Shown one piece after another: positions 6,542 through 62,696 of a DNA stretch of 64,000 nucleotides. Source of the stretch: a virus. Lineage: Duplodnaviria; Heunggongvirae; Uroviricota; Caudoviricetes. The position numbers were made by a program, and so were the translations under genes. Each line of letters opens with the position of its first letter. The first letter of the stretch is position 1. The stretch spans positions 10,261-74,260 of the IMG/VR virus record IMGVR_UViG_3300005660_000003. One strand, given 5' to 3'. The notes beneath the pieces were generated by a model. That model searched no databases. It was not told the DNA's origin and saw only the letters and a list, made by a program, of their open reading frames with translations.

Positions 6542-7725
6542 TTTAGGCCCTCAGCTAGGATTTTTTTTCCGGGGAAATTAACCAATTTAGGGTCTCCCCC
6601 AGCGGTAACCACCCACAAAATTGGCCTAGATCTCATTAAGTACTTTCCCGAAACGTATCCATCGGTAAACATTATAAGGGCGTTATATTTATTGCCTTTA
6701 TTAAGTAACTGGATCACTTCAGTGGGGTCAGTACCGCCGCCGCCCTTTACCTGACTATTCTGCCATTTCTTTTTATTTGAAAAATCAAATTTATCTTGAA
6801 TTCCAAAGTCCCAAGTAACTATCTCTATTTCTACACCAGATTTATTCATATATGAAATTTGATTAAAGAATTCAGAGAGCTGACTAGGACTAATTGACCC
6901 GCTAACGTCTACCCCCACAAGCATTTTTCTTCTTTGGTTTAAGGTTATTGCTGCCTGATCTGGATACCTCTTATTGGGTTTATTTTGTGTAAACTTTATA
7001 ACCTGCTTATCACAAAAGGATTTAAACTGCCGCATAACCTGTCGCCAATCCAGTACTGGTGGAGTTTTAATGTAAAGATTTAGAATAAAATCCCTAAGGT
7101 GTCCGGGAACACTTCCGGGCTGTTTATTAAAGGTGTGCTCATACACCTCTTTCATTTGGTGTTCTATTTGGGCTTTTATAAGCTCCTTCATACCGTCAGG
7201 GATAGGCTCCCCATCTTCTGCTGAGTCCCACAATGGATGCCCGCACACAGTTTTGCCGCCCTGCTTCATGAAGTTGACTAAACCCTTCAACTTCGGGGAC
7301 TTATTGTTTTGATTAGCTTTACACAACTCGTCGTAGTAAAACTTAGTGTCTTTAAATGGTGGAAGATTTAATTCTGGGAAAGAGGTTGGAAGCATAGCGT
7401 TTGGCGGAAGGTAATCTGTTTCGATATATTGATTTATTACCATATCGGCAGCTATGTTATAAATCTCTTTCTCTGCGTAGTTATCCCAATAAATTAAATG
7501 AAACAAACATATATGACCTACTTCGTGTTCCATTAGTCCTATCTTTTGTTTGTCTGTAAGCTTATTAAAATATTCCTCATTAAACCACATATCGATCATC
7601 ATTCCATTAATTTGGCAGCAAGCAGTTGGAATATGATCTGAAAAAGCCTTTTGAATTCCAAGTGCGAGGTGCCCATAGTACGGTGACCGGTACAGAAGCC
7701 CTTTACTACATTGTACTAAATCCAA
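6538..7725 (-). CDS. VWA-domain protein with N-terminal HExxH metallopeptidase-like motif (CobT-like partner of the AAA ATPase)
   Basis: HEVGHICLFH zincin motif. MIDAS-type VGVDVSGSIS motif of the VWA fold. Confidence 0.65.
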   Translation of the reverse strand: MDLVQCSKGLLYRSPYYGHLALGIQKAFSDHIPTACCQINGMMIDMWFNEEYFNKLTDKQKIGLMEHEVGHICLFHLIYWDNYAEKEIYNIAADMVINQYIETDYLPPNAMLPTSFPELNLPPFKDTKFYYDELCKANQNNKSPKLKGLVNFMKQGGKTVCGHPLWDSAEDGEPIPDGMKELIKAQIEHQMKEVYEHTFNKQPGSVPGHLRDFILNLYIKTPPVLDWRQVMRQFKSFCDKQVIKFTQNKPNKRYPDQAAITLNQRRKMLVGVDVSGSISPSQLSEFFNQISYMNKSGVEIEIVTWDFGIQDKFDFSNKKKWQNSQVKGGGGTDPTEVIQLLNKGNKYNALIMFTDGYVSGKYLMRSRPILWVVTAGGDPKLVNFPGKKILAEGLK

Positions 7726-7831: not shown

Positions 7832-8524
7832 ATGGACAAAGACAAAATTAAACAATATAAAAGAGAACACTATCTAGCTAATAAGGAAAAATACCACGAA
7901 GATAATAAAAAATATAGGGAGGAAAACAAAGATAAAATCCGGGAATCAAAGAAACAGTATAATATAAACAATAAGGAAAAGATTAAAGAAAGACAGAAGA
8001 GGTACTACCTAAATAATCAAGATAAAATAAAAAGCTATAGATTCAACAACAAAGAGAAGATTAGTAGTGAAAATAAAGAATATTGTAGGGCAAATAGGGA
8101 TAAAATAAATGCTCAAATAAGACTTAGAAAAAAGACTAACCCTAAACCAATGTTATTAAATAATAGACTTAAGAATAATTTAAGAAGAAGAATTGTTCAT
8201 GTAATACGAGGTAATAATAAATCTGCGGTTACGATGAAACTAATTGGGTGTGATATAGATTTTCTTAAAACCCACTTATCTTCCAAGTTTACTACTGGAA
8301 TGACTTGGGAAAACTATGGTTTATACGGTTGGCACATTGATCATATTAAACCCTGTGCTTCCTTTGATCTTTCAAACCCTATCGAGCAGACTGCCTGCTT
8401 CCACTACACAAATCTCCAACCTTTATGGGCAACTAAAGAAATTGCTCTATCTTATGGAGAGGGACTGGACTACGTGGGAAACCTAGAGAAGGGTTCACTG
8501 AACTTTAGTTCAGCTTCAAGGTAG
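7832..8524 (+). CDS. HNH homing endonuclease (Lys-rich NK(E/D)KI repeats plus HNH, no obvious zinc finger)
   Basis: HNH block GMTWENYGLYGWHIDHIKPC...NLQPLWA. Confidence 0.8.
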   Translation: MDKDKIKQYKREHYLANKEKYHEDNKKYREENKDKIRESKKQYNINNKEKIKERQKRYYLNNQDKIKSYRFNNKEKISSENKEYCRANRDKINAQIRLRKKTNPKPMLLNNRLKNNLRRRIVHVIRGNNKSAVTMKLIGCDIDFLKTHLSSKFTTGMTWENYGLYGWHIDHIKPCASFDLSNPIEQTACFHYTNLQPLWATKEIALSYGEGLDYVGNLEKGSLNFSSASR

Positions 8525-13175: not shown

Positions 13176-14135
13176 TTAGAACTCCTCATCAGTCTGATTA
13201 CAGTCAAATACGAAAAGCCCTTCTTCTACCCACATGCGTTTTACACTTTTCCTATCATCGTAAACACCCACTACGTGGTACTTGGGTTTAATATATATTT
13301 CGTATAATTCTTTTTTAATAATGGTGTCTTTTCTATTATCTTTTAATTCCCGCATAAAGAATAAGTCATAAGAAATTCTATTAGTTTCTAACCAGTCAAG
13401 TGTTTCATCTTTGCAAATACCATCTCGCCCAGTCATTATAATAATTACATGACCGGCTGCTTTATGGGCCAGAAGAGCCTCTACAACTGGTTCATTAGAT
13501 AAGTCAGTGCCAACCTTATTCCAATTAAAGGGGCTGCGTCCGTTCATAAGGGCCAAAGTCCCGTCAATATCAAATATACAAGCAGCCTGTTTATTTTCAC
13601 ACTCAGCAACAGCTTCACGTTCAATGCTTGTTCTTTTGGGTATTACTTTATTCAGATCAAAAGTTGTCTTAACGGCAACAAGGCCCTTAGCCATTCTATT
13701 AATGATCTCGGGTCCCACCTTTTTATCTCGCACGGCATCCCTTTGGATGCAGGTTGCCGTAGGCACATCAAAGACTTGAAAAGTCACTTCATCAAAAGCT
13801 GTACAGAATTTAATGAGTTTTTTCAAGAACTCGACAGAGCAATTCGTCTGATCTATAACAAGATCCTTATCACCTTTATTGGCAATAGCCTGCTCTATCA
13901 TCTTTGTTACTATCTTTTCCCCACGAGGATCTAAGAATGGGGCGTTTCCTAGCATCGCTCGAAGATCATCCCGACATAATCGTAGAGTATTTGGATTCTT
14001 CTGAATCCAGCTTTTTGCCCACGTACTTTTCCCAGATCCGGGAACACCAACTGCTAGATATATCAAGTTTTTACTCCTGTTAATTCTGAGGTATCCTAGA
14101 TACCGAGGAACTTCTTCTTGTAGGTAATGGTCCAA
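13176..14135 (-). CDS. pnk: polynucleotide 5'-kinase/3'-phosphatase (T4 Pnk-like)
   Basis: N-terminal P-loop GVPGSGKST. C-terminal HAD phosphatase motif IFDIDGTLA. Confidence 0.8.
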   Translation of the reverse strand: MDHYLQEEVPRYLGYLRINRSKNLIYLAVGVPGSGKSTWAKSWIQKNPNTLRLCRDDLRAMLGNAPFLDPRGEKIVTKMIEQAIANKGDKDLVIDQTNCSVEFLKKLIKFCTAFDEVTFQVFDVPTATCIQRDAVRDKKVGPEIINRMAKGLVAVKTTFDLNKVIPKRTSIEREAVAECENKQAACIFDIDGTLALMNGRSPFNWNKVGTDLSNEPVVEALLAHKAAGHVIIIMTGRDGICKDETLDWLETNRISYDLFFMRELKDNRKDTIIKKELYEIYIKPKYHVVGVYDDRKSVKRMWVEEGLFVFDCNQTDEEF

Positions 14136-17301: not shown

Positions 17302-17613
17302 ATGAAGTTATCTGGTGTTAAAAAATCTAATTCGTGTTCAATTTTATTAGGTTGCTCTCCAGATTTTTTTAAATCTTACATAGAAGAAAAGTTTACAACC
17401 GGGATGACTTGGGAAAATCATGGGGTATATGGATGGCACCTAGATCATATAAAACCTTGTAATTCTTTCGATTTATCAAATCCAGAACAACAAAAAGAGT
17501 GTTTTCATTATACTAATATACGTCCCTTGTGGGCTACAACCGATATAGCGATGAGCTACGGAGAAGGCCCGGACTACATTGGGAATTTAGAGAAAGGAAA
17601 GACTGTCACATAA
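17302..17613 (+). pseudogene. 5'-truncated HNH endonuclease copy (HNH domain only, 103 aa)
   Basis: Retains GMTWENHGVYGWHLDHIKPC...NIRPLWA but lacks the zinc-finger/repeat N-terminus. The promoter cassette abuts the ATG. Confidence 0.6.
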
Positions 17614-24512: not shown

Positions 24513-27500
24513 CTAAATTGAACAGGCCCCACCAGAACACCCTGACTCAACAGTCATATCGTCGGTGCCGTCTGGGGTTACTAAGTAATACAGGTTTTTA
24601 ATACCCAATTTGTGTGAGTATATCATTTGTTTAATTATTTCAGATAGTGGAATTTTACCATTAGGATAATTATTATAATCCATAAAAAGATTTAGAGATA
24701 TACTCATACATATCCATCTTTGCATTGATGCATAGATTTTAATATGATGGAGCTGATCTACCATTTCAAATGCTGTTGTGTAATAATTCTTATTTTTAGG
24801 CCAAGACGGAGGAATAACCTTAATTGCCCCAGAGCCAGATTTTTTAGTAGTCAAAAAACTACGTATTGCATCTACCCCATTTGTAGAATTTTGCACAACC
24901 GAAGACGATTCTACCGGCATTTCTGCAAGTAATGTAGAATTCATAAGACCGAACTCTAATATTCTTCCACGTAATTTTTCCCAATCCATTTTAGGTTTAT
25001 CTAAAAACTTTAACTCTTTAGCTGTGTCAATTGGTAAAATTCCATCTGCCCATTTAGTTTTTTCAAACCAAGGCATTCTTTCACCCAACTCTTCTGCTAT
25101 TTTACAAGAGGCACTTATCATATAATAGGAAACTTTTTCAAAAATATCAGAGGTTTCCTGCAGTACTTCTTGAGATGTAAGCTTTATCTTTTTGCTAGCC
25201 ATATAGGCCGCATAATTAGTGATTCCTATCCCTAGCGACCTATAGTTCTTACAAAAGTTTTCTGCTGCCGGGAATCTATACTCTTGAGAATCTATGACTT
25301 CGTGCAATATTCTAGATATAATATAGCACACACTTTCATACTCTTCTTCTTTTGTTGTAAGAACATTAACAGCAGATAGCACGCACACACCAATTAATCC
25401 ATCAGGGTCCTGTAGGTGTTGTACTGGTTTAAGTGGGTGAACGACCTCTTGGCAATTTCCAGTTAAAATCCCATTAAATACAGCTTTATGTTCTAACGGC
25501 TCATTTAAACAATACGTATCATCTTTTCTACCGTCGTCCGTTATATTGGCTACCGTAATAAATTGAGATGCCTCTCTCTGTGGTAATCTTTGATTAAATT
25601 TTAATCTATTTGTTTTAAACCCCATCAATGAAAGCTTATATAAATCATTTGAATTTATTAATAGTCTTTTTGTTTCCTTGCATGAGAATAATTTATACCC
25701 GCCACGACCATCTGGTAAAAGTCTGTCTCCAGTTTCTACTCCATTTACAATTTTACTATTTATACCAAGGGTTTGAAGCATTAATTGTAATTCATAAATA
25801 AATTCTTGCTCTATAGAAGAAACCTGTATTGACTCATTTGTTCCATTTCTAGCTATAGTTCCATCTCCATCTAAATAACCAGCTAACCAAGCGAGTTTTA
25901 TTTTAACCGAAGAGTTAGTTGGTATTTTAAATTTCATAGGCATATCTTCATGCATTACAACATTTCTTCTACCAGAGGTGTCTTCTCCTCTATCTTTTTT
26001 AATATCTAGAAACTTAACAAGATTTTTCTTTTCTCCATATAGAGATATTCTTCTTGCCGATCCAGTCTCATGTGTTCCGTCAGCACAAAATAGTCCGTGG
26101 GTATATGGATATTTAAAATCTTCTGATCCATCTACAATAGGTAGATCAAATTTACATAGCTTGTCACCCACCTTAAGATCTTTAGTTTCTTTAATGGTTA
26201 ACTTACCCTTAACTTGATCTGCATATGACTCAACAATATACCACTTGTGGTATGGTGTGCATTCTAAATATTTACCATCTGAAAGTATAACTTTAACAAG
26301 TTTTTTATTAACCCCAGTTTTTACAACTTGCGTTTTTGACCATTGTTTACCATTCCAAACAGATACAATTTCATTTTCTAGTTCACGTATTGGAATGTGA
26401 CCATCTTTCGTTAGTAACAATGTCTCTGGAGCAACACACAAATTACTAGTAGTAACTCTTTCTTTAAAAGTACTGTGCTCATTCACATTATCTATGTGCA
26501 TAATATATATACGGCCAGTTTCAAGTCTTTCTTTTGCTATTTGGTTTAATAACTCAGATGCCTTTATTCTCTTTGAGAACTTTCCCCCTTTTTCTTCTGC
26601 TCTTGTGTAGATCTCATCAAATTCGGGTAGTCCAAAACTATTATAAACCTCGGGAAATTCATGATAACTCATTAAGGTAACGTCCTCACCCTTCATAAAT
26701 CTATTATAAAGAATTCCACTAATCTGTATACAATAATCCATCCATCTTACCTTATTTTCATCCGCCCCCTTATTATTCTTATAAGTGAGAATATCCTCTA
26801 TCTCTGGATGAAAGAATGGGAAATTTATTGTAGCAGAACCTTTTCTAATTCCTCCTTGTGAGGTTGAATTAACAGAACTTTCAAGTAGCTTTGCAAACGG
26901 GCGAATACCTGTATGTTTAACTTCCCCGTTTCTAATAGGGGCATTTCTAGCCCGGATAGATCCCATGTCTAAGCCAATTCCAGACCTATCTGCTACATAC
27001 TGCCCGACTATATGACTAGACGAAAAGATGGAGTTTAATGTATCATCAATTTTAATTAATATACAGCTTGAGTAATTCTTTAGTTTAGTTCTTACGCCAG
27101 CTAAAATGGGGGTAGGGAGATTTATTTTAAACAAAGAAAGATAATCATAAGTTTTCTTTATTAAGTCTAATCTATTCTCGTAACTCTTAAATAAAACCAT
27201 TGGAATTAATATAAAAGCGAATTGGGGAGTTTCATATATTTTCCCCGTTGATCTATCCTTAATTAGATACTTATCACACATTTGCTGAATACCAGCGTGG
27301 GTAAACATAAAGTCTCTATCATGTTTAACCATTTTATTTATTTTGTGTATTTCAGACTCTGAGTATTCCTTTAGTATGTCCTCATTGTAAATAGTCTTAT
27401 TTTTTCTAAGATGGTCATACAACCTAGGTGGGTCACTTTCTCCCCAGACTTGTTTTCTTAGGGCGTATGTCCGCAGCCTCCCGGCAACATATTGATAATT

Positions 27501-27719
27501 AGGATTATCTAATGTTATTAGGTCATACGCCGATCTTACTAATATCTCTTGTATATCAGAGGTTTTCATCTTATTTGATATTGAAATCTTAGCGTTCATG
27601 GCTACATCACTAGCTGATACGTCACTTAAATCGCTACATGCCCACTCAAGGACTTTGTTAATTTTTTCAGCATTAAATTCTTCTAATTTACCATTTCTCT
27701 TTTTTATTTGTAAAGTCAC
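24513..27719 (-). CDS. nrdA: ribonucleotide reductase class Ia alpha subunit containing an intein
   Basis: N-terminal ATP-cone, then SNL-C...N-CQEV. The extein is about 740 aa. The 328-aa insert has Hint blocks and LAGLIDADG motifs. Confidence 0.9.
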   Translation of the reverse strand: MTLQIKKRNGKLEEFNAEKINKVLEWACSDLSDVSASDVAMNAKISISNKMKTSDIQEILVRSAYDLITLDNPNYQYVAGRLRTYALRKQVWGESDPPRLYDHLRKNKTIYNEDILKEYSESEIHKINKMVKHDRDFMFTHAGIQQMCDKYLIKDRSTGKIYETPQFAFILIPMVLFKSYENRLDLIKKTYDYLSLFKINLPTPILAGVRTKLKNYSSCILIKIDDTLNSIFSSSHIVGQYVADRSGIGLDMGSIRARNAPIRNGEVKHTGIRPFAKLLESSVNSTSQGGIRKGSATINFPFFHPEIEDILTYKNNKGADENKVRWMDYCIQISGILYNRFMKGEDVTLMSYHEFPEVYNSFGLPEFDEIYTRAEEKGGKFSKRIKASELLNQIAKERLETGRIYIMHIDNVNEHSTFKERVTTSNLCVAPETLLLTKDGHIPIRELENEIVSVWNGKQWSKTQVVKTGVNKKLVKVILSDGKYLECTPYHKWYIVESYADQVKGKLTIKETKDLKVGDKLCKFDLPIVDGSEDFKYPYTHGLFCADGTHETGSARRISLYGEKKNLVKFLDIKKDRGEDTSGRRNVVMHEDMPMKFKIPTNSSVKIKLAWLAGYLDGDGTIARNGTNESIQVSSIEQEFIYELQLMLQTLGINSKIVNGVETGDRLLPDGRGGYKLFSCKETKRLLINSNDLYKLSLMGFKTNRLKFNQRLPQREASQFITVANITDDGRKDDTYCLNEPLEHKAVFNGILTGNCQEVVHPLKPVQHLQDPDGLIGVCVLSAVNVLTTKEEEYESVCYIISRILHEVIDSQEYRFPAAENFCKNYRSLGIGITNYAAYMASKKIKLTSQEVLQETSDIFEKVSYYMISASCKIAEELGERMPWFEKTKWADGILPIDTAKELKFLDKPKMDWEKLRGRILEFGLMNSTLLAEMPVESSSVVQNSTNGVDAIRSFLTTKKSGSGAIKVIPPSWPKNKNYYTTAFEMVDQLHHIKIYASMQRWICMSISLNLFMDYNNYPNGKIPLSEIIKQMIYSHKLGIKNLYYLVTPDGTDDMTVESGCSGGACSI
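25455..26438 (-). mobile_element. intein (residues 428-755 of NrdA) with LAGLIDADG homing-endonuclease domain, inserted at the thiyl-radical Cys (SNL|C)
   Basis: Starts CVAPETLLLTKDG (block A). TPYH (block B). HGLFCADGT and LAGYLDGDGT motifs. Ends ...TGN followed by +1 Cys. Confidence 0.8.
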
Positions 27720-35395: not shown

Positions 35396-35741
35396 CATAG
35401 CTGACTCTATAAAAAATGTTGCTAACACTGAGAATATAAGTAATATTGAGCTTGAAAAGGCTTACATTGCTTACATGGGTGCGTATCAATATGGAAAACT
35501 ACTTGACTTTGAAGGCTGTGAAGACTTCGCTGAATTATTTGACAAGATGCGGCTCGTTACCACTCGCCTACAATATGTTAGGAATGCTAAACTGAGTGAT
35601 GCGGCCTATGCAGAATTAAAAGAATTCGAAAAAGATGATAAGGGAAACCCCATTCCTTTTGATTCCGAGCATCAGGCTGCCTTTATGGAGAAGGCTTATC
35701 AAGTAGCGGAAGGTCTAAAGGCAGCAATTGAACGTGAATAA
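35313..35741 (+). CDS. secreted hypothetical protein (start uncertain, overlaps upstream ORF)
   Basis: Signal-peptide-like N-terminus. 142 aa. Confidence 0.35.
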   Translation: MLIRNFFIFTAICVSQILVIAQTSPQSNIADSIKNVANTENISNIELEKAYIAYMGAYQYGKLLDFEGCEDFAELFDKMRLVTTRLQYVRNAKLSDAAYAELKEFEKDDKGNPIPFDSEHQAAFMEKAYQVAEGLKAAIERE

Positions 35742-36798
35742 AACAAGGCATTATGTTTATAAAATAACAAATAAGATTAATGGTAAGTTTTATATTGGTA
35801 TTAAATCTTCTAGGCTTAACTTTTTAGATACTAATTATTATGGAAGTGGGAGGTTAATTAAAGCTTCTATTAAAAAACACGGTAAAGAAAATTTCTTAAG
35901 AGAAGTTCTTTTTGAATTTAGAACTCGTGAAGAAGTCTTAAGTAAAGAAAAAGAATTGGTTACCAAAGATTTAGTTAGTAGCCATAATTGTTACAATATA
36001 ACAGTTGGTGGTGGAGGATTTACCAATCTCAATTATCGTTCACTTCCTATAAAGAGTCTTGATTTTATGGGTAAAATAACTTACTATAAGTCTATGCTTG
36101 ATGCCTCACTTTTAGTTAAGGGATGTAATAGAACTGGCGTGCGTAATGCTATTATTGGTAAAGCAAATACCCATAATAATTTATATTGGTCTAAAGCTGA
36201 TAAAGACTTTTTAATCAAGAAAAATAGAAACTCTATTACCCCGTGCTTTTCACTAGATGAAAATAGTAGTAAAATTTACTATAATTCATTTTCAGAAGCC
36301 TCAAAGGCTACAGGGGTAGCTTGTAGTATAATCAGGAGATGTGTGGTTTCTGGTAAGGGCACTGGTGGCGGATTTAATTGGTATAAAACTACATCAAAAT
36401 TAGACTCATCTAGTTTCCGTGGAAAAAATTATTTAACTAGAAAACCTTGTATTTCTATAGATAAGACTGGTGCAAAGAAATATTATTCTTCTATTACTGA
36501 AGCTAGTAAGCAAACTGGTATTTGTAATACAAATATTTGTTTATGCTTAAAATTAAAAGCACGTTCTGCTGGTGGATTATCTTGGTATTATACCGATTCT
36601 GAAACAAATAAATTTAATGGAGTCGGTCCCCGCACCAAGTGTTACGAAAGTACAGATTCTAGAGGAAATAAAAAACGTTATAAATCCTTAAAAGAAGCTG
36701 CAAAAAGCAACAATTACAGTGTAGATTATATCTCTAAAGCTGCTAAAAATAATTTATTAGTTGCTGGATTAAAATGGGAGAGAATAAATGCTAAATAA
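35728..36798 (+). CDS. GIY-YIG homing endonuclease with C-terminal repeated helix-turn-helix (NUMOD/IENR-like) DNA-binding modules
   Basis: HYVYKITNKINGKFYIGIKS is GIY-(10)-YIG. Repeats YY(N/S)S(F/I)(S/T)EASK.TG. Overlaps the intein-containing gene start by 11 nt. Confidence 0.8.
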   Translation: MNVNKTRHYVYKITNKINGKFYIGIKSSRLNFLDTNYYGSGRLIKASIKKHGKENFLREVLFEFRTREEVLSKEKELVTKDLVSSHNCYNITVGGGGFTNLNYRSLPIKSLDFMGKITYYKSMLDASLLVKGCNRTGVRNAIIGKANTHNNLYWSKADKDFLIKKNRNSITPCFSLDENSSKIYYNSFSEASKATGVACSIIRRCVVSGKGTGGGFNWYKTTSKLDSSSFRGKNYLTRKPCISIDKTGAKKYYSSITEASKQTGICNTNICLCLKLKARSAGGLSWYYTDSETNKFNGVGPRTKCYESTDSRGNKKRYKSLKEAAKSNNYSVDYISKAAKNNLLVAGLKWERINAK

Positions 36799-38773
36799 TA
36801 CTGAGGGGTGGATTCACGACCCACGAGCCATAGAAGAGGTGATGTCTTCTCTTGAGCAACCATTCTTTTTTCAAGCGGCTGACGTTTTACAAGCTACTGG
36901 TAAGGGTAAATCAGCTTACCTTTATGAGAATTTTAAAAAGTTAAATATTCCATATCCCAAGCCACTCCAAGCTGGCGAAGGAGACTGTTTTAATCCGTCT
37001 TCATTAGTTACTATGGCTGACGGCTCTAAGAAATCTATCATTGATATTAAGGTTGGTGATTTAGTAATTTCTGCAATTGGTAATATTAAAAAGGTTTTAT
37101 CGGTATTTAATAAACCGTTTACTGGTAAAATGATTAAAATAACTACTCAGAGTTACCATAAACCATTGATTTGCACACCTGACCATAAATTAGTTCAATG
37201 TGTTAGTAAAAATACCACTAGATGGAATCGAGCGGATCTATTAGATCTTAAAGATTATATTCTAGTTTCAAAAATGCCTAACATAAATAATGAAAAAATA
37301 TACGATTTATCACAAATTTGTCCGAAGTCTGAGAACGTAGGTACTGATCAAATTAAAGCAATTAGATCTAATAAATTAGCTAACAGATTTATTAAGAATT
37401 CAGAAAAATTATTTTGGTTATTCGGTATGTATTTAGCTGAGGGAAGTTGTGACTTAGGTGGTGACAAATTACCAAAAAGAATTACATTTAACCTATCTAA
37501 TGATGAAATTTTAATAGCTGAAAAAATTAAACAATACATTAAAGATGTTTTTAATCTTGATGCTATTATTTGTAGTGTCCCATCGAAACCAAGTGTTTTG
37601 TACGTAAGAATTGGTAGTTATTTATTTGCTAATTTTGTTAAACATTTTTGTACCGGAAACGTTTATTCTAAATCATTTAGTGATGACTTTAAAATAGAAT
37701 CATTTTCTAATAAGTTAGCATTGCTTGAGGGATGGATGGATGGTGATGGATGGGAAGATAGAAAAGGCGTAACCGTAAGTGAAAATTTAGCTTATAATTT
37801 TTTTGATATAGCTAATTCTTTGGGCATGAATGTTAGAATTGATCATCGTAAAGCATACAAACAAAGTAAAAAAAGTTATTCGGTCGATATTAATTGTAGT
37901 GTTAAAACTTATGAAAAAGCTAAAGTTTTTACGAAAACTAGACTAAGTTATAATTTTATCACTAAGGTAGGTAAAGCTGCTAAAATAAAAAATGTAGAAT
38001 ATATTGAGCCAGAAACTGACAAGGTTTATTGTATTGAGGTAGAGGGTGATAACTCATTTATCTGTGACGGTTATGGTGTTCATAACTGCGTCTCTCACGC
38101 CACATCTTTGGCACTCGACACTTTATCTGTTACTGAAATTGTAAATGGCGATAGAGAAGTTTGGGTTGCAAGATCCGCTAGCGAATACGTTTATCATGTT
38201 TCTAGGATGGTAATCGGTAAAGGTAGATTTGGCTCCGGCGGAGGGTCCGTGAATGCTTATGCCGCTAAGGGTCTTCAGGAATATGGTAGTTTACGACGAA
38301 CCCAATATAACTCTGTAGATTTAACTAAATACTCTGAGAAAAGAGCGTATTCTTGGGGTCGTGGTTCTATTCCTAAAGATCTTTATGACATAGCTAAGGC
38401 CCAGAATATTGGTAAATTTGCAGCTATTAAAAATTTTAGTGATGCGTGCGACAGTCTTTATAATGGATATCCAATTGTTGTTGCGTCAAGCCAAGGGTTT
38501 TCTTCTACGAGAGATAAGGATGGTTTTTGTAGACCTCAGGGTAGCTGGATGCATTCCATGAGTGTACTTGGATATAAAGACGGTAGTCGTCCCGGTGTTG
38601 CAATTTGTAATTCTTGGCCCAGCTTTTTACCCGGAGAAAATGAGTTTGGGTTACCACCATCGTGTTTCTTCTGCGATGCTTCTGTCTTTGATAATATGTG
38701 TAAAATGGGTGACACTTTTTCATTAGCCGGATTTAACGGTTTTAAACCACGTGCCGACGCTCGTGTAATTTAA
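36788..38773 (+). CDS. papain-like (C1 family) cysteine peptidase interrupted by an intein
   Basis: The 294-aa extein has Q-x5-C (QAGEGD|C), ...HSMSVLGYKDGS... and NSWP...GENEFG, matching papain Q19/C25/H159/N175 plus NSWG...GENGY. Confidence 0.7.
   Translation: MLNNTEGWIHDPRAIEEVMSSLEQPFFFQAADVLQATGKGKSAYLYENFKKLNIPYPKPLQAGEGDCFNPSSLVTMADGSKKSIIDIKVGDLVISAIGNIKKVLSVFNKPFTGKMIKITTQSYHKPLICTPDHKLVQCVSKNTTRWNRADLLDLKDYILVSKMPNINNEKIYDLSQICPKSENVGTDQIKAIRSNKLANRFIKNSEKLFWLFGMYLAEGSCDLGGDKLPKRITFNLSNDEILIAEKIKQYIKDVFNLDAIICSVPSKPSVLYVRIGSYLFANFVKHFCTGNVYSKSFSDDFKIESFSNKLALLEGWMDGDGWEDRKGVTVSENLAYNFFDIANSLGMNVRIDHRKAYKQSKKSYSVDINCSVKTYEKAKVFTKTRLSYNFITKVGKAAKIKNVEYIEPETDKVYCIEVEGDNSFICDGYGVHNCVSHATSLALDTLSVTEIVNGDREVWVARSASEYVYHVSRMVIGKGRFGSGGGSVNAYAAKGLQEYGSLRRTQYNSVDLTKYSEKRAYSWGRGSIPKDLYDIAKAQNIGKFAAIKNFSDACDSLYNGYPIVVASSQGFSSTRDKDGFCRPQGSWMHSMSVLGYKDGSRPGVAICNSWPSFLPGENEFGLPPSCFFCDASVFDNMCKMGDTFSLAGFNGFKPRADARVI
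36986..38086 (+). mobile_element. intein (367 aa) with LAGLIDADG endonuclease domain, inserted immediately before the catalytic Cys of the peptidase
   Basis: CFNPSSLVTMADG (block A). CTPDH (block B). LFGMYLAEGS and LLEGWMDGDGW. Ends GVHN|C. Confidence 0.8.
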
Positions 38774-47856: not shown

Positions 47857-48425
47857 TTATATATTTTTCCCCAGATTTCTGAACAATGTCTATATTTTTC
47901 TATTAGGCAATATTTATATCCAATGTTATCTAGTATTTTAATCAATTGTTCTTTATCTTTTATTGGTGATGTGTGGGAAGGGTTATATTTTTCAACCTCT
48001 TCTTTTGTTTCACCAATTGGCACAATAAAGAATAAGACTTTACGAACAACATTAATAAGAGTTTTCAGGGCCACTTCTAGGTCTAGGGCGTGTTCTAAAG
48101 TATGAGAACAAAATATATAATCAATGGATCCTTCTTCAAATTCACACAGTGTATGAAAATCTGAATTCAAAACTATGTGTCCACGCTCCTTAGCCTTGGC
48201 CAACTTTTCATCTGATAAATCTACACCAATTATATTGATAAATCCCATATCTTTGAGAGCATCTAAACCTCTACCTTCACCACATCCCACGTCTAATACG
48301 TGGGCTTCACGATCTATATCTTTGAAGGTTTCTCGTATTGCGGCTTCTATTGAGTCTCCCCAAGGTGATCCATATGACCAAGCAGATCCAGACACTTGGA
48401 TATCTATGTATTCTTTATCTAACAA
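47853..48425 (-). CDS. class I SAM-dependent methyltransferase
   Basis: [11 protein letters not shown]...GVDLS...[10 protein letters not shown] (Methyltransf_11-like). Confidence 0.7.
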
Positions 48426-48711
48426 GGTGATTCCTTATTCCATTGAGGGTATTAAAATTAACAAGGAAAATAGAAAATTTAAGAGAAAAGGTATGACTTG
48501 GGAAAACCGTGGAAAGGGCGGCTGGCATATTGATCATGTTCTTCCGTATGCAAGTTTCGATCTTTCAGACCCTGAACAACAGAAGATTTGTTTCCATTAC
48601 ACAAACCTACAACCATTATGGGCTACTACCGCGATTGCAATGAGCTACGGGGAAGGGTCAGAATATGTTGGAAACATTGAAAATCTGATAAACCCTATCC
48701 TCTTAATTTAA
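48406..48711 (+). pseudogene. HNH endonuclease remnant (HNH domain only)
   Basis: [46 protein letters not shown] with no N-terminal DNA-binding modules. The ORF-track frame overlaps the opposite-strand MTase. Confidence 0.5.
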
Positions 48712-55441: not shown

Positions 55442-56164
55442 TTACTTCTGTTCGTTGTTATTGTTACAGTTACCAAAGTACTCATCTGGGTTCTCCGGAG
55501 ATAAAACAGAATTAATAGAACAAAAACTCAACATCCTGTGAACGGGCCAACCTTTTCCACCCATCAAATTGGCGAATTGATTAACGCTGGTCCCAGCTGC
55601 AATGTTGGCTATATAGTTACTCATTGGTTGAACGCACCCAAAACTTGCTGATTCACTTGATGGGAAAATGGTTTTGAGATACCAATCATTAGTAGTCTCC
55701 ATGTCTTTTACAGTAAGAATTTGAGCAACAGAAGCCCCGATTCTAACATCAAAGAAATATTTGCACTTATCCCTGTAGTAGTTATACAGGAGTTTCCTTA
55801 TATCAATGTTGTCTACGGTACTCCATACTGCGTCATAGGTGGTGTTTTTCCCCACTATTCTAGGGGCCCATTTATTAGGGTAAGCACTTACTTTAATGGC
55901 TTCGCCCATTTGGGAAACAATTTCTTCAGCTAGAACTTCTACCTTTGTCTTGCCACAATCACCCTGTGACCAATTCTGAGGAATTATATTGTGCGCTTCT
56001 ACAATGTCATTATCAACTAAATCAATAGACTTGACTCCAAGTCTAGCTACACAACTCGCTACGTTTCTACCTATAGCCCCACATCCGACAATTAAGACCC
56101 GTACTTCTTCTAGGTTTTTAGCAGGGCAGAAGTACTCTTGGCGAGAATAGAAAGCCGCGCTCAT
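55442..56164 (-). CDS. E1-like (ThiF/MoeB/UBA superfamily) adenylating enzyme
   Basis: Rossmann motif VLIVGCGAIGRNVASCVARLGVKSIDLVDNDIVE. 4-nt overlap with the JAB gene. Confidence 0.7.
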   Translation of the reverse strand: MSAAFYSRQEYFCPAKNLEEVRVLIVGCGAIGRNVASCVARLGVKSIDLVDNDIVEAHNIIPQNWSQGDCGKTKVEVLAEEIVSQMGEAIKVSAYPNKWAPRIVGKNTTYDAVWSTVDNIDIRKLLYNYYRDKCKYFFDVRIGASVAQILTVKDMETTNDWYLKTIFPSSESASFGCVQPMSNYIANIAAGTSVNQFANLMGGKGWPVHRMLSFCSINSVLSPENPDEYFGNCNNNNEQK

Positions 56165-57285
56165 TTGAAATCTCCTGTATTAATTTTACTTGCTGTATCT
56201 TTAAATTGTGGATACTTTAATCCCGCTGTATTAATGGCTTTTACTCTGTCAAGTTTATTATTACTTTTATAGGCTATCTGGAAATCTTTTTCTAACAAAT
56301 CCCCGTGTATAGCTCCGAGAATAACAGATATTCCATCCATTGGATTATAAGGGTTGTCAAACTCAAATATTCTTTCCATGCTCTGCAAGGATGTAATATC
56401 CTCTATGTCTGCGAATGCAGCTTTCATTCTTTGTAGCTCGTTGTCAGTCATCACCCTAAATGATTCTCGGTGCTCTCCTAACTCGAGTAGCATTTCTGGG
56501 ATTATTTCCGGGGACGCACTTTTTTTAAAACTATTTTTAGCGGGTTGGTAATGACTATGGTTTCCACCATATCCTTGATACCCGCTTCTTATTACTGTGT
56601 AAGTATCTGGGCTAACTAATTTGTCATATTCAGTAATCAGTTCGTTAAATTCTGGGAAAATTTCAATTAGTGAAACATGTGGGAGGAGTGACTTCTTAGC
56701 TTTTTCCATACCCAATTTATCTACAGCCCTTTCCCCAAAAATATTTTTTAAACCTGTTAAAATTTTAGCATCGTATCCTTCATCTTTAATAATTTCAACA
56801 GGTATCTCTTTTTCTACTTCATACGGATGATCTAGCCCGTTTACTGATGTGCTAAGATTACCTCTAACTCTCAGTTTACAGGTAATTTGTCCTGTCTTTG
56901 ACAGGATCATCATTACCATAAAATTTTTCATAGCGTTATCTTGGTCGTTCCAAGTGCTCATATCTTTACCAGAGGGATTAGCTGAACTATCTCCAGTCAT
57001 TGGGTGAGTATGACACCAAACTCTTTCACAGTTAATAGGTGGTATTCCCGCCATAGCGTTAGTTTCTATATATTCCGCCATATACTCGGGGCAACAATCG
57101 GAACTAGTTGAATTTACTTTTTGTTTTACGATCCTGAAATCATAAACATGAAGTGGGTTTTCTTTGTGGGTGATTCCAAACATTGTAATTTCTGAGTCTT
57201 TGTGGTCTCTCATAAATACAAACTTATCAAATGCATACGCATCAATTTTAAGTGTAAGTTCTTTTTTGGGTGTAGTTGTGTTCAT
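56161..57285 (-). CDS. JAB/JAMM (MPN+) metallopeptidase with C-terminal extension (deconjugating/processing enzyme)
   Basis: E...HTHPMTGDSSANPSGKD fits E-x(n)-H-x-H-x(10)-S-x2-D. Confidence 0.65.
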   Translation of the reverse strand: MNTTTPKKELTLKIDAYAFDKFVFMRDHKDSEITMFGITHKENPLHVYDFRIVKQKVNSTSSDCCPEYMAEYIETNAMAGIPPINCERVWCHTHPMTGDSSANPSGKDMSTWNDQDNAMKNFMVMMILSKTGQITCKLRVRGNLSTSVNGLDHPYEVEKEIPVEIIKDEGYDAKILTGLKNIFGERAVDKLGMEKAKKSLLPHVSLIEIFPEFNELITEYDKLVSPDTYTVIRSGYQGYGGNHSHYQPAKNSFKKSASPEIIPEMLLELGEHRESFRVMTDNELQRMKAAFADIEDITSLQSMERIFEFDNPYNPMDGISVILGAIHGDLLEKDFQIAYKSNNKLDRVKAINTAGLKYPQFKDTASKINTGDFK

Positions 57286-58196
57286 ACTTTAATCTCTTCC
57301 TTTTCTTGACAAACTTCACAGATTGCCTTGTTGTTTATGGTAAAGTAATACGGGGTGGTTTTTTCACAAACTGAACACTTTTTAATGCAATTTAGGGAAT
57401 AAAATTTCCCATCAATTTCTTCAGAACAATCCTTGTGTATAATTGCTTTTGTTTTTTCACAACTAATTTGTTCTCCGTCAAATTGGTAGCAAACAGAGCA
57501 CTTTTGTCCTACCCAATTATCTATGTACGCCCCGCTCCAATTAAGTGAGTTAGCATTATACCTACATAGTAATCCACAGACATTGTACAAAATTGACATT
57601 ATATCAAATTTTTGGGTATCTGCTCCCGATAGACGCGGATTTAGATATCCTCCTAGGCACAGCCCTCCATTTGGTCCTATGTGTGGGTGAAAACAACTTT
57701 TACCCCCAATGTTTCGCGGGTTATTTTCTCCACTTGGAGTACTTACTGCAGATAGACCTACTGAACGTGGAGAACTACTAACGTAATCGTCGAAATATAA
57801 TCTTGTTTTAAATAGTCCTAGGTCTACTGTTAGGTTAGTATTTGTTTGGTGGTTTTTTTCTGATATTACGGCTCTAGATTCAAACATAATTGTTGATACA
57901 TACTCATCCATTTCTAGCATTGTAAAATCGTGCTTTTTAACTAATCCATCATAAAGGCTATCGAAGCCTTCTCTACTTACAGCCTTTAAGGGTTCGCGAT
58001 AGTATGTATCGCCATAGTTGGCCAATGTATTTACCGCAGAAGAAAGTTCTCGGATTGTTCTACTTCTAGCTTTTTCTAGTGTTTTGTAGCTTGTGTCTAT
58101 TACTGGAAGATGTTCATTCTCCCATTTTTTTCTTCTCGAACACCCAATAGTGTATTGTCCATAGAATTTTTCTTTAGTTAACATCACACGCTCCAC
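57282..58196 (-). CDS. E2-like (UBC-fold) conjugating enzyme with C-terminal Cys-rich zinc-ribbon domain
   Basis: CFHPHIGPNGGLCLGGYL matches the UBC active-site motif FHPNI...G.ICLDIL, with a candidate catalytic Cys. Confidence 0.65.
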   Translation of the reverse strand: MERVMLTKEKFYGQYTIGCSRRKKWENEHLPVIDTSYKTLEKARSRTIRELSSAVNTLANYGDTYYREPLKAVSREGFDSLYDGLVKKHDFTMLEMDEYVSTIMFESRAVISEKNHQTNTNLTVDLGLFKTRLYFDDYVSSSPRSVGLSAVSTPSGENNPRNIGGKSCFHPHIGPNGGLCLGGYLNPRLSGADTQKFDIMSILYNVCGLLCRYNANSLNWSGAYIDNWVGQKCSVCYQFDGEQISCEKTKAIIHKDCSEEIDGKFYSLNCIKKCSVCEKTTPYYFTINNKAICEVCQEKEEIKV

Positions 58197-59061
58197 ATAT
58201 TACTACATCAGATTTAATAATCCAATCCACTTTATCTTTTTTGCACACATAGCATTCTTTAACCATTGCTGGATTGTAAATAGTCCCATTTATTACCTTA
58301 CCACAGTTTGCGTGTAGGATCATGCCGGTTTTAGGGCAGGTAATCATGTTCTTCTTGGAGTATTCCTCGCATACGCAACATTTTCTACCAATAAAATTTT
58401 CCATTGAACTAGCAATGTATGACGAATTAAACACCGATAACTGTTTTATAATGTTATCAATTATATCATAAAAGAACTTGTTTGTATCAAATGCTTTTGT
58501 AAAAATGGCATAATGTATGAACTCTCCGTATATATCAAAATATGGATGTTTTATTTTTCCATCAGTTTTTAATTTAATTATTCTTGGATGTAAAATATTT
58601 TCTTTACTAGTAAAAGTAACATGAATTGGGAAATTTTCAAATTGTAGGGTCCAAAACTCACCTGTCTTTATATTTTTATTATGTAAATTTAAATCAACAC
58701 TAAAATATAAACTTTGGTTACCGGAATGTTTTATAAATTTTATGCTTGGGTACTTTTCTTCTAGTTCTTTTATTTGAGAATCTAGTGTGGCAGGGTTGAA
58801 TTCTTCAAAAGAATTTAAGTAATCCAAATCTATGTCTGAATATTTCGACATATTATCTCGTATCTCTGGATACTTTCTTTTTTCAATATATTCGTCAATT
58901 TTGTTTTTTTCTTTATGTAATCTGATTATCTTTGAAAGTAGGAGGTCGTATACATGTTGTAAGGCATGGTTTTCTTTAAGCGTATTTATTTGCTCAAGAA
59001 AAGCCTCTGTGTATACACTCTTATCTAGTGCGGGTTTTTTTGTTGGCATTGCTGTTACCAA
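58174..59061 (-). CDS. E2-like paralog lacking the catalytic Cys (UEV-like?), same C-terminal Cys-rich zinc-ribbon domain
   Basis: Same two-domain architecture as 57282..58196. The HP-containing loop ILHPRIIKLKTDGKIKHP has no Cys. Confidence 0.45.
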   Translation of the reverse strand: MVTAMPTKKPALDKSVYTEAFLEQINTLKENHALQHVYDLLLSKIIRLHKEKNKIDEYIEKRKYPEIRDNMSKYSDIDLDYLNSFEEFNPATLDSQIKELEEKYPSIKFIKHSGNQSLYFSVDLNLHNKNIKTGEFWTLQFENFPIHVTFTSKENILHPRIIKLKTDGKIKHPYFDIYGEFIHYAIFTKAFDTNKFFYDIIDNIIKQLSVFNSSYIASSMENFIGRKCCVCEEYSKKNMITCPKTGMILHANCGKVINGTIYNPAMVKECYVCKKDKVDWIIKSDVVICGACDVN

Positions 59062-59221
59062 GAGATTACTCCGTAAGAAAATTTTTAAATAATTAAAGTA
59101 GGTGGAGCGTTTCCACGAAGATGGTTATTGTTCCGAGTATAAAGTTTGCGCAAGTATTACAAACAAAGTAAAAGGGGTGGAATTAAATTCCACCCCTTTA
59201 TCCTTAAGCGGTCAGACTATT

Positions 59222-59437
59222 TTAGCCTGCATCGACCTTGCCCAAGCTCACAGTCAAAATATCGCCGTCACCAAGAGGCGTTTCTGTGTTTGCCTGCATT
59301 CCGTTCACGCGATATACAGATCCGCTTGGAGCCCCAACTCGTGAGCCAGCAGCCCCCGCAGTAGAGCCGTGAGACAGGGTTACTGATACCTGATTGCCGT
59401 CTGAAAAAGCCTTGATAACGTTTACTGTAATGTTCAA
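59222..59437 (-). CDS. ubiquitin-like beta-grasp protein (ThiS/MoaD-like), C-terminus ...GKVDAG
   Basis: 71 aa. PLGDGDILTVSLGKVDAG resembles the ThiS/MoaD C-terminal ...DGD.I....V.GG. First gene of the E2-E2-JAB-E1 chain. Confidence 0.6.
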   Translation of the reverse strand: MNITVNVIKAFSDGNQVSVTLSHGSTAGAAGSRVGAPSGSVYRVNGMQANTETPLGDGDILTVSLGKVDAG

Positions 59438-60010: not shown

Positions 60011-60583
60011 CTAATCACCAAAGCCATCATTAAGTAAAAATGGCCTTTGTGGACTCGAATCAGAAATTGTCCAACTAATTTCTGGACTTCTTAATTGATT
60101 TTTGTTTTTAACTACACCTATAATCTTCCTGTCGAAATTAGGTAAAAGCATTTCTATCTTATTGTTATTATTTATCGACAATTCAAAATCTTGGAAAGCG
60201 AAACTTTTTGAGTCTTTATCATACGGTATGTTTTTCGTATAATATAGAAATGAAAAGTTTGTTTTGTCTTCGGTTTCTTTTAACCCTGTAATCACGCAGG
60301 AGAATATATGGTCGCACGCCAATGAAATCGCATATGGAAAACCATCTATCGTACGTTGGAATTTAGTGTGCCCAGTAAATCTTACTGAAGATCCATCGTA
60401 AATATTAATTACCTCGGCGTATCCTTCTGGGGTAATTTGTACGTATACCCTTCTACCATCTGGATTTTTCTTATTCGTAAAGAAATGTAGATCATTGCTA
60501 TATGTTTTTCCAACATATGTATGGTCAAACATTCTTCCCCATTTATGAAGTAGTGGGTGACTTTTATACTGTAATTGCGTCAT
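60011..60583 (-). CDS. hypothetical protein
   Basis: 190-aa ORF. Confidence 0.45.
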   Translation of the reverse strand: MTQLQYKSHPLLHKWGRMFDHTYVGKTYSNDLHFFTNKKNPDGRRVYVQITPEGYAEVINIYDGSSVRFTGHTKFQRTIDGFPYAISLACDHIFSCVITGLKETEDKTNFSFLYYTKNIPYDKDSKSFAFQDFELSINNNNKIEMLLPNFDRKIIGVVKNKNQLRSPEISWTISDSSPQRPFLLNDGFGD

Positions 60584-60606: not shown

Positions 60607-61029
60607 TTATGTTTGAAGAGACAATCTCTTCTTTATTTCACTAAAAGTAGAAGAGTTGCAGGATGCTCCGTTAAGAAAGATGGAGGTCAACTCTCCCTCT
60701 TTTTCCTGCTCCGGTGAACAATCATTAAGTAACACAAGGACTCCATTGTCTCTTTTGATTACTGAAAGTAATCCTTTTGCGGACTTCTTCATGCCATCGC
60801 CAGTTTTTGGATCTTTAAAGATGCTCTTGGCTACGCCAGAGATTTGGACCCAAGTAGCCTTGCAGGCAATAGAATATGTATCACGGGTAACATATTGGTA
60901 TGTGTAAGACCCAATACCAAACACTACATTAGTGGAAGCAAAACCCTTGTCGGCTAGTAATTTGCAAATTTGTTCACACCTATAGATGATTGGTGTGAAT
61001 AAATAAGCATTCAGGGATACCAGAAGCAT
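60607..61029 (-). pseudogene. nadV: C-terminal remnant (about 140 aa) of nicotinamide phosphoribosyltransferase NadV/NAMPT
   Basis: GIGS...QYVTRDTYSIACKATWVQISGVAKSIFKDPKTGDGMKKSAKGLLSV...TFSEIKKRL aligns by eye to the NAMPT C-terminus (GSGGG...LTRDLLNCSFK......VFKDP...KRSKKGRLSL...SFDEIRKN). The N-terminal ~350 aa are absent. Confidence 0.5.
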
Positions 61030-61357
61030 CCATTTCTACATCATCTAATATTAAGATCTTACCACTAACTGGGTTGCTTGCGATCCAGCTCTTGATCTCA
61101 TCTATTCTCCAACTACCCTCTATATCTGTACAGGGCAATATTGGCGTATGATCAAAGATAGTAAGCCCCGCCCACAATAACTCACTTCTTACGCGGGTTA
61201 TTGAGGCTGGGTGTCTACGCTAATCAGAAGAAAGAACTATCTTAGAACTGGTGCTCTCTACGAGAAATTTCAACAGTAGCAACTTGTCATTCTCAAAAGG
61301 TGTTTCGCTTATTGAGCGATTAAGAACACCATCCACGTCTAAGAAAATAATGTTCAC
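60980..61357 (-). pseudogene. small HAD-superfamily phosphatase with an in-frame TAG at codon 46 (probable TGG to TAG in the conserved SSDWR motif); GTG start overlapping upstream stop (GTGA)
   Basis: Hand translation: VNIIFLDVDGVLN...KIVLSSD*RRH...KILILDD.... HAD motifs I (DxDGxL) and IV (DD) are present. The ORF track shows only the post-stop part (60980..61177). Confidence 0.5.
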
Positions 61358-61602
61358 GCCGTTTTCCCACCAATTCCAAATTTTCTAACATCTTCTCTTG
61401 GGTTTACTACCCTAATCTTTTCGACTAGAATATTATCAATACTATCTATCAATTCTTCCGTTAGTTTTCCCAAATTTTTCCTTTCGGCAACGCTTGGGAT
61501 TCCCTCAACGGTAATTGAAAAATCTGTATTTTGATAACTACCAGAAGATATTTTAACTGATCTTGTTACAGTTACACTTTTGATTATCATGAAAATGCCC
61601 AA
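61354..61602 (-). CDS. hypothetical protein
   Basis: 82-aa ORF. Confidence 0.4.
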   Translation of the reverse strand: MGIFMIIKSVTVTRSVKISSGSYQNTDFSITVEGIPSVAERKNLGKLTEELIDSIDNILVEKIRVVNPREDVRKFGIGGKTA

Positions 61603-62696
61603 TGTTTAGTTTGGATTTCGTTTACAAACACATCAGCTTTTATGTGTTTCTCTGGAGCTGGATTTGATTTAATCCATTCTTCATAAATTACTTCTGTGTC
61701 TTTGTTATTAACTTCATCCCAAGCTTCATCCCAAGCTTTATATGCAGGATTTACCATAGTAACCATGAAGGTTTTTTCACCAGTTATACTAATTAAACAT
61801 ATAACATGGTTGCCGCCCTTATCATAAATCCAAGATCCGGGTGGTGAAAACCTTGTAAATGGTTCACATAGTTCAAGTTTTTCATGATATATTGTACCAT
61901 CTTTTGCATCTACTATTTGGTAGTTATATGAATATTTTTTGCCAACGCTTCTATTGCAGTTTAAAATACTAATAAATGCAGATGGCTTTTCATCATATAA
62001 ATTTGATTCATCTATTATTTCTATCACCGAATCTATAGAAATAGTATCCATTTTTGAAATTACTTCAATTGTGTCATCAGTAAATGCCACATTTTTAAGT
62101 CTATCTTGTACGATCTCTGTGATGGTGTCCTTGGTTAGATCTCCGTATTCTTTAACATATCTAATTCTACTTAGTCTATTAAGCAGATTTTCATTAACAA
62201 ACATGTGATTTGTTGTCAGAAGATACAAACACTTTTGCTTAGGAACTTGTACTCCATCCATACAGGATAGCAACACACCCCTAGTGTCCTGAGTGAAAAC
62301 CTTTTCATATTCATCAACAAGAATTACACAATCGAAATCTATCGTGTTAATGAATTCTGGTATTCCGGGTAGATTTTCACTAATCATAATTACGGGCAAT
62401 TTTAGCTCATTACATATAATTTTTGCCGTAAATGTTTTACCAGAACCCTTCATTCCATTTAGTAAAACGCCCAAATTTCTTTTTGATTGATTAAAGCTTT
62501 TTACAATCCTATCAATTAAGGTTTTGTCCACATCGTAGATCTTTTCTGGAAGCTTAAAAGACTCTCCTACGTGACTTAAATATAAGCCAATGCGTGGACT
62601 AAGACATAGTTGATACATTCCAGCTTCAATTTTTACTGGAACGTGTGGATCTGTAGAGTAAATACACCCGCTACTATTAACCCAAATTTTAGACAA
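61587..62696 (-). CDS. AAA ATPase
   Basis: Walker A GMKGSGKT. Walker B ILVDEYEK. LLSCMDGV (sensor region). Confidence 0.65.
   Translation of the reverse strand: MSKIWVNSSGCIYSTDPHVPVKIEAGMYQLCLSPRIGLYLSHVGESFKLPEKIYDVDKTLIDRIVKSFNQSKRNLGVLLNGMKGSGKTFTAKIICNELKLPVIMISENLPGIPEFINTIDFDCVILVDEYEKVFTQDTRGVLLSCMDGVQVPKQKCLYLLTTNHMFVNENLLNRLSRIRYVKEYGDLTKDTITEIVQDRLKNVAFTDDTIEVISKMDTISIDSVIEIIDESNLYDEKPSAFISILNCNRSVGKKYSYNYQIVDAKDGTIYHEKLELCEPFTRFSPPGSWIYDKGGNHVICLISITGEKTFMVTMVNPAYKAWDEAWDEVNNKDTEVIYEEWIKSNPAPEKHIKADVFVNEIQTKHWAFS

Follow-up and report, generated by a model that had tools for sequence, protein, structure and literature searches.

The 140-codon open reading frame (ORF) at 60607–61029 on the minus strand of the window (the whole 64,000-nucleotide stretch of phage DNA analysed here) is very probably a relic without function, derived from a phage NAD+-reconstitution gene that was most likely the namat gene of NARP1. 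By illegitimate recombination, a HAD phosphatase gene, cut 11–20 codons before its end, was joined out of frame to the interior of a namat gene, and the 140-codon ORF exists only through an out-of-frame ATG in the HAD-derived sequence, which opens the namat frame. The relic product, as predicted from its sequence, cannot make NAD+ or NMN, because little of the barrel is left and the N-terminal domain, the clamp loop, and the catalytic residues are gone.

The ORF is chimeric and ends at the native TAA stop codon (60607–60609). Comparisons with Pfam, the PDB, and two contigs of related phages, L102 and L184, delimited the Namat/Nampt-family 3' remnant to 60607–60983 (minus strand), that is, 124 codons (ORF residues 17–140) and the TAA. 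Residues 1–16, including the ATG, form a 5' extension (60984–61029, minus strand) that does not belong to the enzyme and derives, in a different reading frame, from the 3' part of the HAD gene. These bases aligned in the HAD frame to the HAD protein of a further contig, L100, and to the Pfam profile PF18143, and no similarity to Namat relatives was found in them 5' of the junction. A stretch reading SLNAYLF...IIY was considered as leftover namat homology 5' of the junction and was rejected as a chance likeness, because the identity with L184 stops at 60983.

The Pfam profile PF04095 (NAPRTase family) matched ORF residues 17–87 with its positions 155–221 of 239 (E = 3.8e-11; 43.6 bits at a cut-off of 20.8). 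In phmmer searches against the PDB, ORF residues 14–135 aligned with positions 364–488 of the 491-residue chain 9W5X_A, the Namat of phage SpbetaL1 (E = 1.3e-31; 112.6 bits), and residues 19–138 aligned with positions 362–482 of human NAMPT (E = 1.9e-11; about 46–47 bits). A tblastn search with the ORF against phage records matched 1854 records, and the function-annotated ones among the matches listed were nicotinamide or nicotinate phosphoribosyltransferases. The remnant was also 66.9% identical to residues 413–532 encoded by the intact 533-aa gene of L102. A preliminary description had assigned the ORF by eye to the last approximately 140 residues of NAMPT/NadV. All of the motifs on which it relied were present (GIGS, VTRD, FKDP, MKKSAKG, and TFSEIKK), and the NAMPT-family similarity of the 140-aa product was significant, with the PF04095 and 9W5X E-values stated above. 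The reading as a C-terminal remnant was thus borne out by Pfam, phmmer, and tblastn, but only residues 17–140 are derived from the enzyme.

A six-frame tblastn search of the window with a 521-aa phage homologue as the query matched only query residues 394–516 (60981–60613), and all other matches had E > 2; the search, in which frameshifts were allowed for, therefore revealed no full-length gene. A complete enzyme has an N-terminal domain and a barrel carrying the catalytic residues R306 and the catalytic histidine (Namat numbering), and only the equivalents of positions 364–488 of 491 were found. The conserved GLIYGDS motif, located just 5' of the breakpoint, was gone from the remnant. On these comparisons, the ORF is a C-terminal remnant of a Nampt-family enzyme, and no full-length gene is concealed in the window. 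The G+C content of the remnant (0.39–0.41 versus 0.35 genome-wide) was unremarkable, and a promoter scan around the relic detected promoter-like sites no more commonly than expected from shuffled sequences.

Phages restore NAD+ to overcome bacterial immunity. In NARP1, Adps converts ADP-ribose to ADPR-PP, which Namat then couples with nicotinamide to form NAD+ (bioRxiv 10.1101/2024.02.11.579819; PMC12774641). The entries 9W5X and 9W5W are structures of the phage SpbetaL1 Namat, a nicotinamide ADP-ribose transferase; the helix of its selectivity clamp carries the aromatic residues F392 and Y396, which were mutated to G and K, and the loop half of the clamp is the beta1–beta2 loop with R40 in the N-terminal part (PMC12774641). 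R306 is essential in both Namat reactions (bioRxiv 10.1101/2024.02.11.579819; PMC12774641). According to the NARP1 paper, 97% of the Adps-clade genes have a Namat homologue nearby (bioRxiv 10.1101/2024.02.11.579819).

The fragment was closer to Namat than to Nampt (112.6 bits for 9W5X versus about 46–47 for human Nampt), and so was the syntenic full-length orthologue in L102 (561 bits for Namat versus 247 for Nampt). The relic segment includes the clamp helix, which contacts the adenine of ADPR-PP or NAD+, and in the phmmer alignment Tyr42 and Tyr46 of the ORF (GIGSYTYQY) correspond to F392 and Y396 of the SpbetaL1 Namat; thus, both clamp-helix positions are aromatic. In L102, a PRPS-like 257-aa gene is located two genes 5' of the intact Namat gene. 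Because of the Namat bit scores, the two clamp-helix aromatics, the PRPS-like neighbour in L102, and the 97% association of Adps with Namat, the parent gene is most likely namat of NARP1, with adps as its partner, rather than a classical nadV/Nampt gene; the support for this assignment consists of sequence similarity and a pair of signature residues, and the relic has lost both the catalytic core and the clamp's loop half. The name NadV given in the preliminary description is correct at the level of the Nampt/NAPRTase family (PF04095), whereas Namat is preferred as the specific parent.

Comparison with the known systems shows both likeness and difference. The SpbetaL1 Namat was the best solved relative of both the fragment and the L102 orthologue and has the clamp-helix aromatics in common with the relic; however, only the last 124 of about 500–530 residues are left here, and the clamp loop and the catalytic core with R306 and the catalytic histidine are gone. 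The arrangement in L102, with the gene two genes from a PRPS-like gene, resembles the NARP1 operon, whereas the present phage lacks adps in the 80.5 kb that were read, where no match to the PRPS-like proteins of L102 or SJSY21 was found. The Nampt/NadV enzymes of NARP2 (in Vibrio phage KVP40, NadV together with the Nmnat NatV) and cellular NAMPT share PF04095 with the relic, and the human enzyme aligns over the segment given above; however, that match is far weaker than the match to Namat, and the clamp-helix positions of the relic are aromatic. In addition, no Nmnat, Nudix, or Prs Pfam domains were detected among the 46 window ORFs scanned, which also sets the phage apart from NARP2 as far as the Nmnat-type and Nudix domains are concerned.

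The junction lies between positions 60983 (namat side) and 60984 (HAD side), and both genes are cut there. It reads ...CACCAATCATCT followed directly by ATAGGTGTGAACAA, and a base-level comparison showed that identity between the window and L184 sets in at ATAGGTGTGAACAA, with unrelated sequence preceding it. From 60983 to 51586, L184 was 99.8% identical to the window (16 differences over 9398 bp), whereas from 64000 to 61593 the identity was 89.3%. Between these two blocks, 609 bp in the window (60984–61592, carrying p82 and the HAD pseudogene) are replaced by 614 unrelated bp in L184. There, a 306-aa ORF comes immediately after the AAA ATPase gene, and p190 comes next. Residues 51–303 of the 306-aa ORF correspond to Namat residues 273–532, and approximately the first 50 residues are unrelated to Namat; an AWLHDVIEDT stretch among them matched a putative HD-type protein of contig L024 over 18 residues. 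Two of the 16 differences fall in a single codon of the relic (60640–60642), which is AGT (Ser) in the window and GGC (Gly) in L184; this is the sole coding difference in the relic, and Ser is usual in the family at this codon.

Since namat homology continues 5' past the junction in L184 and HAD homology continues past it in L100, the arrangement in the window is, on this comparison, the derived, recombinant state, with the breakpoint fixed between 60983 and 60984. The unequal relatedness on the two sides of the junction points to a mosaic junction and not to a simple internal deletion. The event would be very recent, because L184 is 99.8% identical from the junction on and the relic has lost no conserved residues and displays no decay. 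In addition, namat was probably already dead before this event on grounds of parsimony, since the copy in L184, though longer, is truncated as well; a second step of erosion would then have produced the relic.

Gene fragments at mosaic junctions produced by illegitimate recombination are part of the general model of phage mosaicism. The present locus agrees with this model in two respects: relatedness shifts sharply at a single base, from 99.8% on one side to unrelated and then 89% on the other, and two genes are truncated at an out-of-frame junction with essentially no homology across it. Nothing in it is unusual in comparison with phage mosaicism in general; here, a recent date can be assigned to the junction, and related phages provide four other states of the locus.

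The gene on the other side of the junction is a HAD_SAK_2-type phosphatase pseudogene (60980–61357, minus strand) with a GTG start at 61355–61357. The ORFs at 61220–61357 and 60980–61177 belong to one HAD_SAK_2 gene in a single frame, and PF18143 matched both halves. The read-through product scored 72.4 bits over profile positions 1–118 of 139, whereas the L100 homologue covers positions 2–139; it was 40% identical to the 139-aa HAD protein of L100, aligned to residues 4–119. The preliminary description had noted an amber-interrupted HAD gene beside the relic, and the TAG is located at 61220–61222 (minus strand), at the position of a conserved tryptophan (SSD*RR versus SSDWRR in L100). It differs from TGG by one G-to-A change, and as the L100 homologue has Trp there, the codon was read as a TGG-to-TAG mutation. 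The same amber was present in all 10 other contigs compared. Instead of a full-length domain in one open frame, the gene thus has an internal TAG and a short 3' end from which the last 11–20 codons are missing. Its terminal TAG (60980–60982) consists of namat-derived bases read out of frame, which in L184 form part of GAT AGG (Asp-Arg). On these features, the HAD gene is plainly dead.

Recoding or suppression of TAG was considered as an explanation for the HAD amber and was rejected. TAG ends 14 of the 95 long open frames in the window, among them the ribonucleotide reductase (RNR) alpha gene, which ends with ...CSGGACSI and TAG at the normal C-terminus and is followed by the beta gene. The only tRNA genes in the window were those for tRNA-Gly and tRNA-Leu, and no suppressor tRNA was found there.

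The remaining neighbours, all on the minus strand, include p82 (61354–61602), an 82-codon ORF without a significant Pfam match, which is part of the 609-bp segment missing from L184. The next gene encodes a backbone AAA ATPase (61587–62696; PF00004), and the replaced segment has its other edge at the stop codon of this gene; AAA ATPase homologues precede the intact Adps–Namat pair in L102. Thus, the space upstream of the relic is occupied by unrelated genes (the HAD pseudogene, the 82-aa ORF, and the AAA ATPase), as had been stated. On the 3' side, a gap of 23 nt separates the relic from p190 (60011–60583), a 190-aa backbone gene that also follows the relic in L184 and has a homologue (28% identity) 3' of the intact gene in L102. 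The segment had been described as a decaying accessory region. This fits the HAD gene, with its nonsense codon at a conserved Trp and its missing 3' end, but not the relic itself, which reflects an abrupt and recent recombination and not slow decay in place.

Four informative contigs (L102, L181, L100, and L184) were gathered by searches with the fragment and the flanking AAA ATPase, and protein comparisons showed that they share backbone genes in the order of the window. In L102, the order is p80, the AAA ATPase, Adps (257 aa), a 71-aa zinc-ribbon ORF, Namat (533 aa), genes for proteins of 458 and 66 aa, and p190. In L181 and L180, an in-frame fusion links Adps residues 1–54 with a C-terminal portion of Namat, and homologues of p160, p71, p304, p374, and ThiF come next. 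The resulting 191-aa fusion of Adps with the C-terminal third of Namat (P0005; L181 5841–6416) was present in three contigs and is, from its structure, a deletion that destroyed both NARP1 genes at once. L100 carries an intact HAD gene approximately 4 kb 5' of a namat relic that begins near residue 365 and whose first 78 codons include no start codon. Accordingly, the adps–namat locus just 3' of the AAA ATPase gene is intact in L102 and differently broken elsewhere on the same backbone. The past possession of the gene suggested in the preliminary description is supported by L102, which has the full 533-aa gene at the syntenic place.

Two other contigs carry free-standing pieces of the gene. 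The relic of L012 encodes 133 aa, and its stop and start codons overlap both neighbours; the C-terminal piece of L024 has no start codon until far inside the fragment. The starts of the relics differ (about residues 273, 365, 397, and 412 in L102 numbering). Six relics hold the C-terminal segment free of stops and frameshifts, and none of them has lost conserved residues; in five (the present one, L184, L181, L012, and L100), the whole frame is open to the native stop. In a survey of 160 other loci from viral and metagenome collections, about 127 genes were contiguous and full-length, about 21 were cut by a contig end, and a few were interrupted or truncated. A clustering of the relic breakpoints near GLIYGDSIT, suggested by the early cases only, was rejected, as the implied starts of 120 short homologues spanned residues 243–432; this set includes one frameshift product (P0006) and many proteins on contigs under 2.5 kb and is apparently limited to proteins of at most 245 aa. 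Searches with the flanking proteins found no close relatives in IMG/VR, and the phage record collection contained no near match to this phage.

In two further viral contigs, the Namat genes themselves (L014 6037–8360 and L076 6151–8351) are interrupted by about 620–670 nt near residues 246–283. The insert of L014 is an HNH-like ORF (6842–7396) that splits the gene, with residues 241–283 encoded on both sides. It is a homologue of at least five paralogous ORFs of the window (3441–4250, 5501–6319, 7832–8524, 17302–17613, and 48175–48711), all on the plus strand and thus opposite to most of their neighbours. They share a C-terminal block with an HNH nuclease-like motif, have no Pfam match, and are probably free-standing homing endonucleases. 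Other selfish elements are also abundant in this genome. The RNR alpha gene (24513–27719, minus strand) contains an intein with a LAGLIDADG-type motif recognized by eye, a 661-aa protein (36788–38773, plus strand) has Pfam matches to intein splicing, Hint, and LAGLIDADG domains, and a GIY-YIG/NUMOD endonuclease gene lies at 35728–36798.

The sequence read amounts to 80.5 kb, namely the window, 7.0 kb past its end (contig L002), and 9.5 kb preceding it (L095). Taken together, the contig extents give a genome of at least 83 kb, so that at least 2.6 kb lie outside the sequence read; a 117.8-kb contig also carries the protein. A search for sequence past window coordinate 71029 yielded no longer contig. 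No N-terminal namat segment and no adps were found in the 80.5 kb read of this genome of at least 83 kb, and the search for an intact copy elsewhere that the preliminary description had called for was negative to the same extent. No capsid or terminase gene was recognized in the sequence read. The phage was nearly clonal across samples, with 0–7 mismatches in 8–20 kb between the window and contigs L002–L011, L094–L099, and L183. A number of contigs share two end points, at about 65,485–65,491 and about -3,286 in window coordinates, which suggests strain-variable or repeated sequence at these sites.

The exact 140-aa protein was found in 17 contigs, and 10 contigs other than the window showed no difference from it over 1101 bp that include the HAD amber. 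At least part of the region is covered, with a base-for-base match, by 13 assemblies from 12 samples (from ENA, JGI, and Logan, together with one NCBI assembly binned as a Chitinophagaceae MAG). This agreement rules out an assembly chimera or a sequencing error as the source of the truncation and the amber. It is also highly improbable that the gene is split or rearranged, with the N-terminal approximately 410 residues encoded elsewhere and the parts assembling or being joined. Part of the genome does lie outside the 80.5 kb read; however, no N-terminal similarity occurs within them, about 127 of the 160 related loci, the syntenic L102 among them, have the gene in one piece, the conserved motif just 5' of the breakpoint has been lost, and the partner at the junction is an unrelated, truncated gene. 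A loss in one step deserves somewhat more weight, although we regard it as unlikely. An ancestor with complete adps–namat would have lost everything from the HAD 3' end to about codon 411 of namat in a single event, and L184 would have been truncated independently. One junction would then explain both truncations, the relic shows no decay, and independent truncations do occur in the clade (L181 and L100). However, L184, which is 99.8% identical on the namat side, is already truncated (Namat 273–532 plus about 50 unrelated residues), and two independent truncations within such a short divergence are less parsimonious than an inherited truncation followed by a second cut.

A different reading is that the C-terminal approximately 125 residues are kept as a stand-alone small protein, acting as a nucleotide-ligand binder, a poison of host Nampt-family dimers, or a decoy. 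The frame is open, the conserved residues are intact, an ATG is available, the same protein occurs in all 17 contigs, and free-standing C-terminal pieces of similar size exist in other phages (L012, 133 aa, and L024). In a profile of 134 homologues, mostly intact, the relic ranked at the 19th percentile, within the range of intact genes; of 46 strongly conserved columns, it deviated from the consensus at 4, with two of these deviations common to related relics. Such conservation would fit a very young relic or continued selection alike, and the two cannot be separated by it because every available copy of the phage is identical in this region. However, the junction produced the ATG and the first 16 codons by accident, the relics of L100 and L024 lack start codons (for 78 codons and until far inside the fragment, respectively), and the starts vary both among the relics and among the 120 short homologues, which are spread over residues 243–432. 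The adjoining HAD gene is plainly dead, and the sole coding difference from L184 alters two bases of a single codon (Ser/Gly), where the family usually has Ser. In NAMPT structures, the equivalent C-terminal segment packs on the N-terminal domain, which makes an independent fold doubtful. Taken together, a retained small protein is quite improbable in this phage, and slightly more so is the broader proposal that the 3' third of namat has been retained repeatedly in the phage group for its own use, as a ligand-binding or dominant-negative mini-protein. The preferred reading remains a young, non-functional relic.

Several further features were observed around the locus. The segment 59050–60000, which spans the 71-aa and 160-aa ORFs 3' of p190, has a G+C content of 44–49% in a genome of 35% G+C. 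A cluster at 55442–59437 (minus strand) includes a ThiF-type E1-like gene (240 aa), its only member with a Pfam match, and a protein of 374 aa whose H-x-H...S-x-x-D stretch (HTHPMTGDSSANPSGKD) resembles JAB/MPN metalloproteases. Two paralogous proteins of 295 and 304 aa, whose C-termini are rich in Cys, and a 71-aa Gly/Ala-rich ORF are also encoded there. L181 and L184 conserve the cluster, and L100 conserves part of it; judging from its gene content, the cluster may represent a ubiquitin-like conjugation set. RNA-repair-type genes are scattered over the genome and include a polynucleotide kinase-phosphatase (AAA_33 and HAD_PNKP; window 13176–14135, minus strand) and, in L002 (2818–3381 and 6173–7456), a gene for an RNA-ligase-like protein of 427 aa and a PP-loop ATPase (ATP_bind_3); the dead HAD_SAK_2 phosphatase was counted among them.

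In conclusion, the relic is a pseudogene of an ordinary kind, situated where two mosaic segments meet; it is of little import for mechanism and of modest evolutionary value. It calls for caution in surveys that count matches to "NadV" or "Namat" as working anti-defence, since a 140-aa match with a good E-value does not equal a working pathway. Its value lies in the comparison it allows at one locus, 3' of the AAA ATPase gene in an uncultivated phage group, where one member has an intact NARP1 module and others have four broken versions. As this single locus shows the intact and four differently broken states, it gives direct evidence that the loss of NAD+-reconstitution genes occurs as readily as their gain, presumably in hosts without NAD+-depleting defences.
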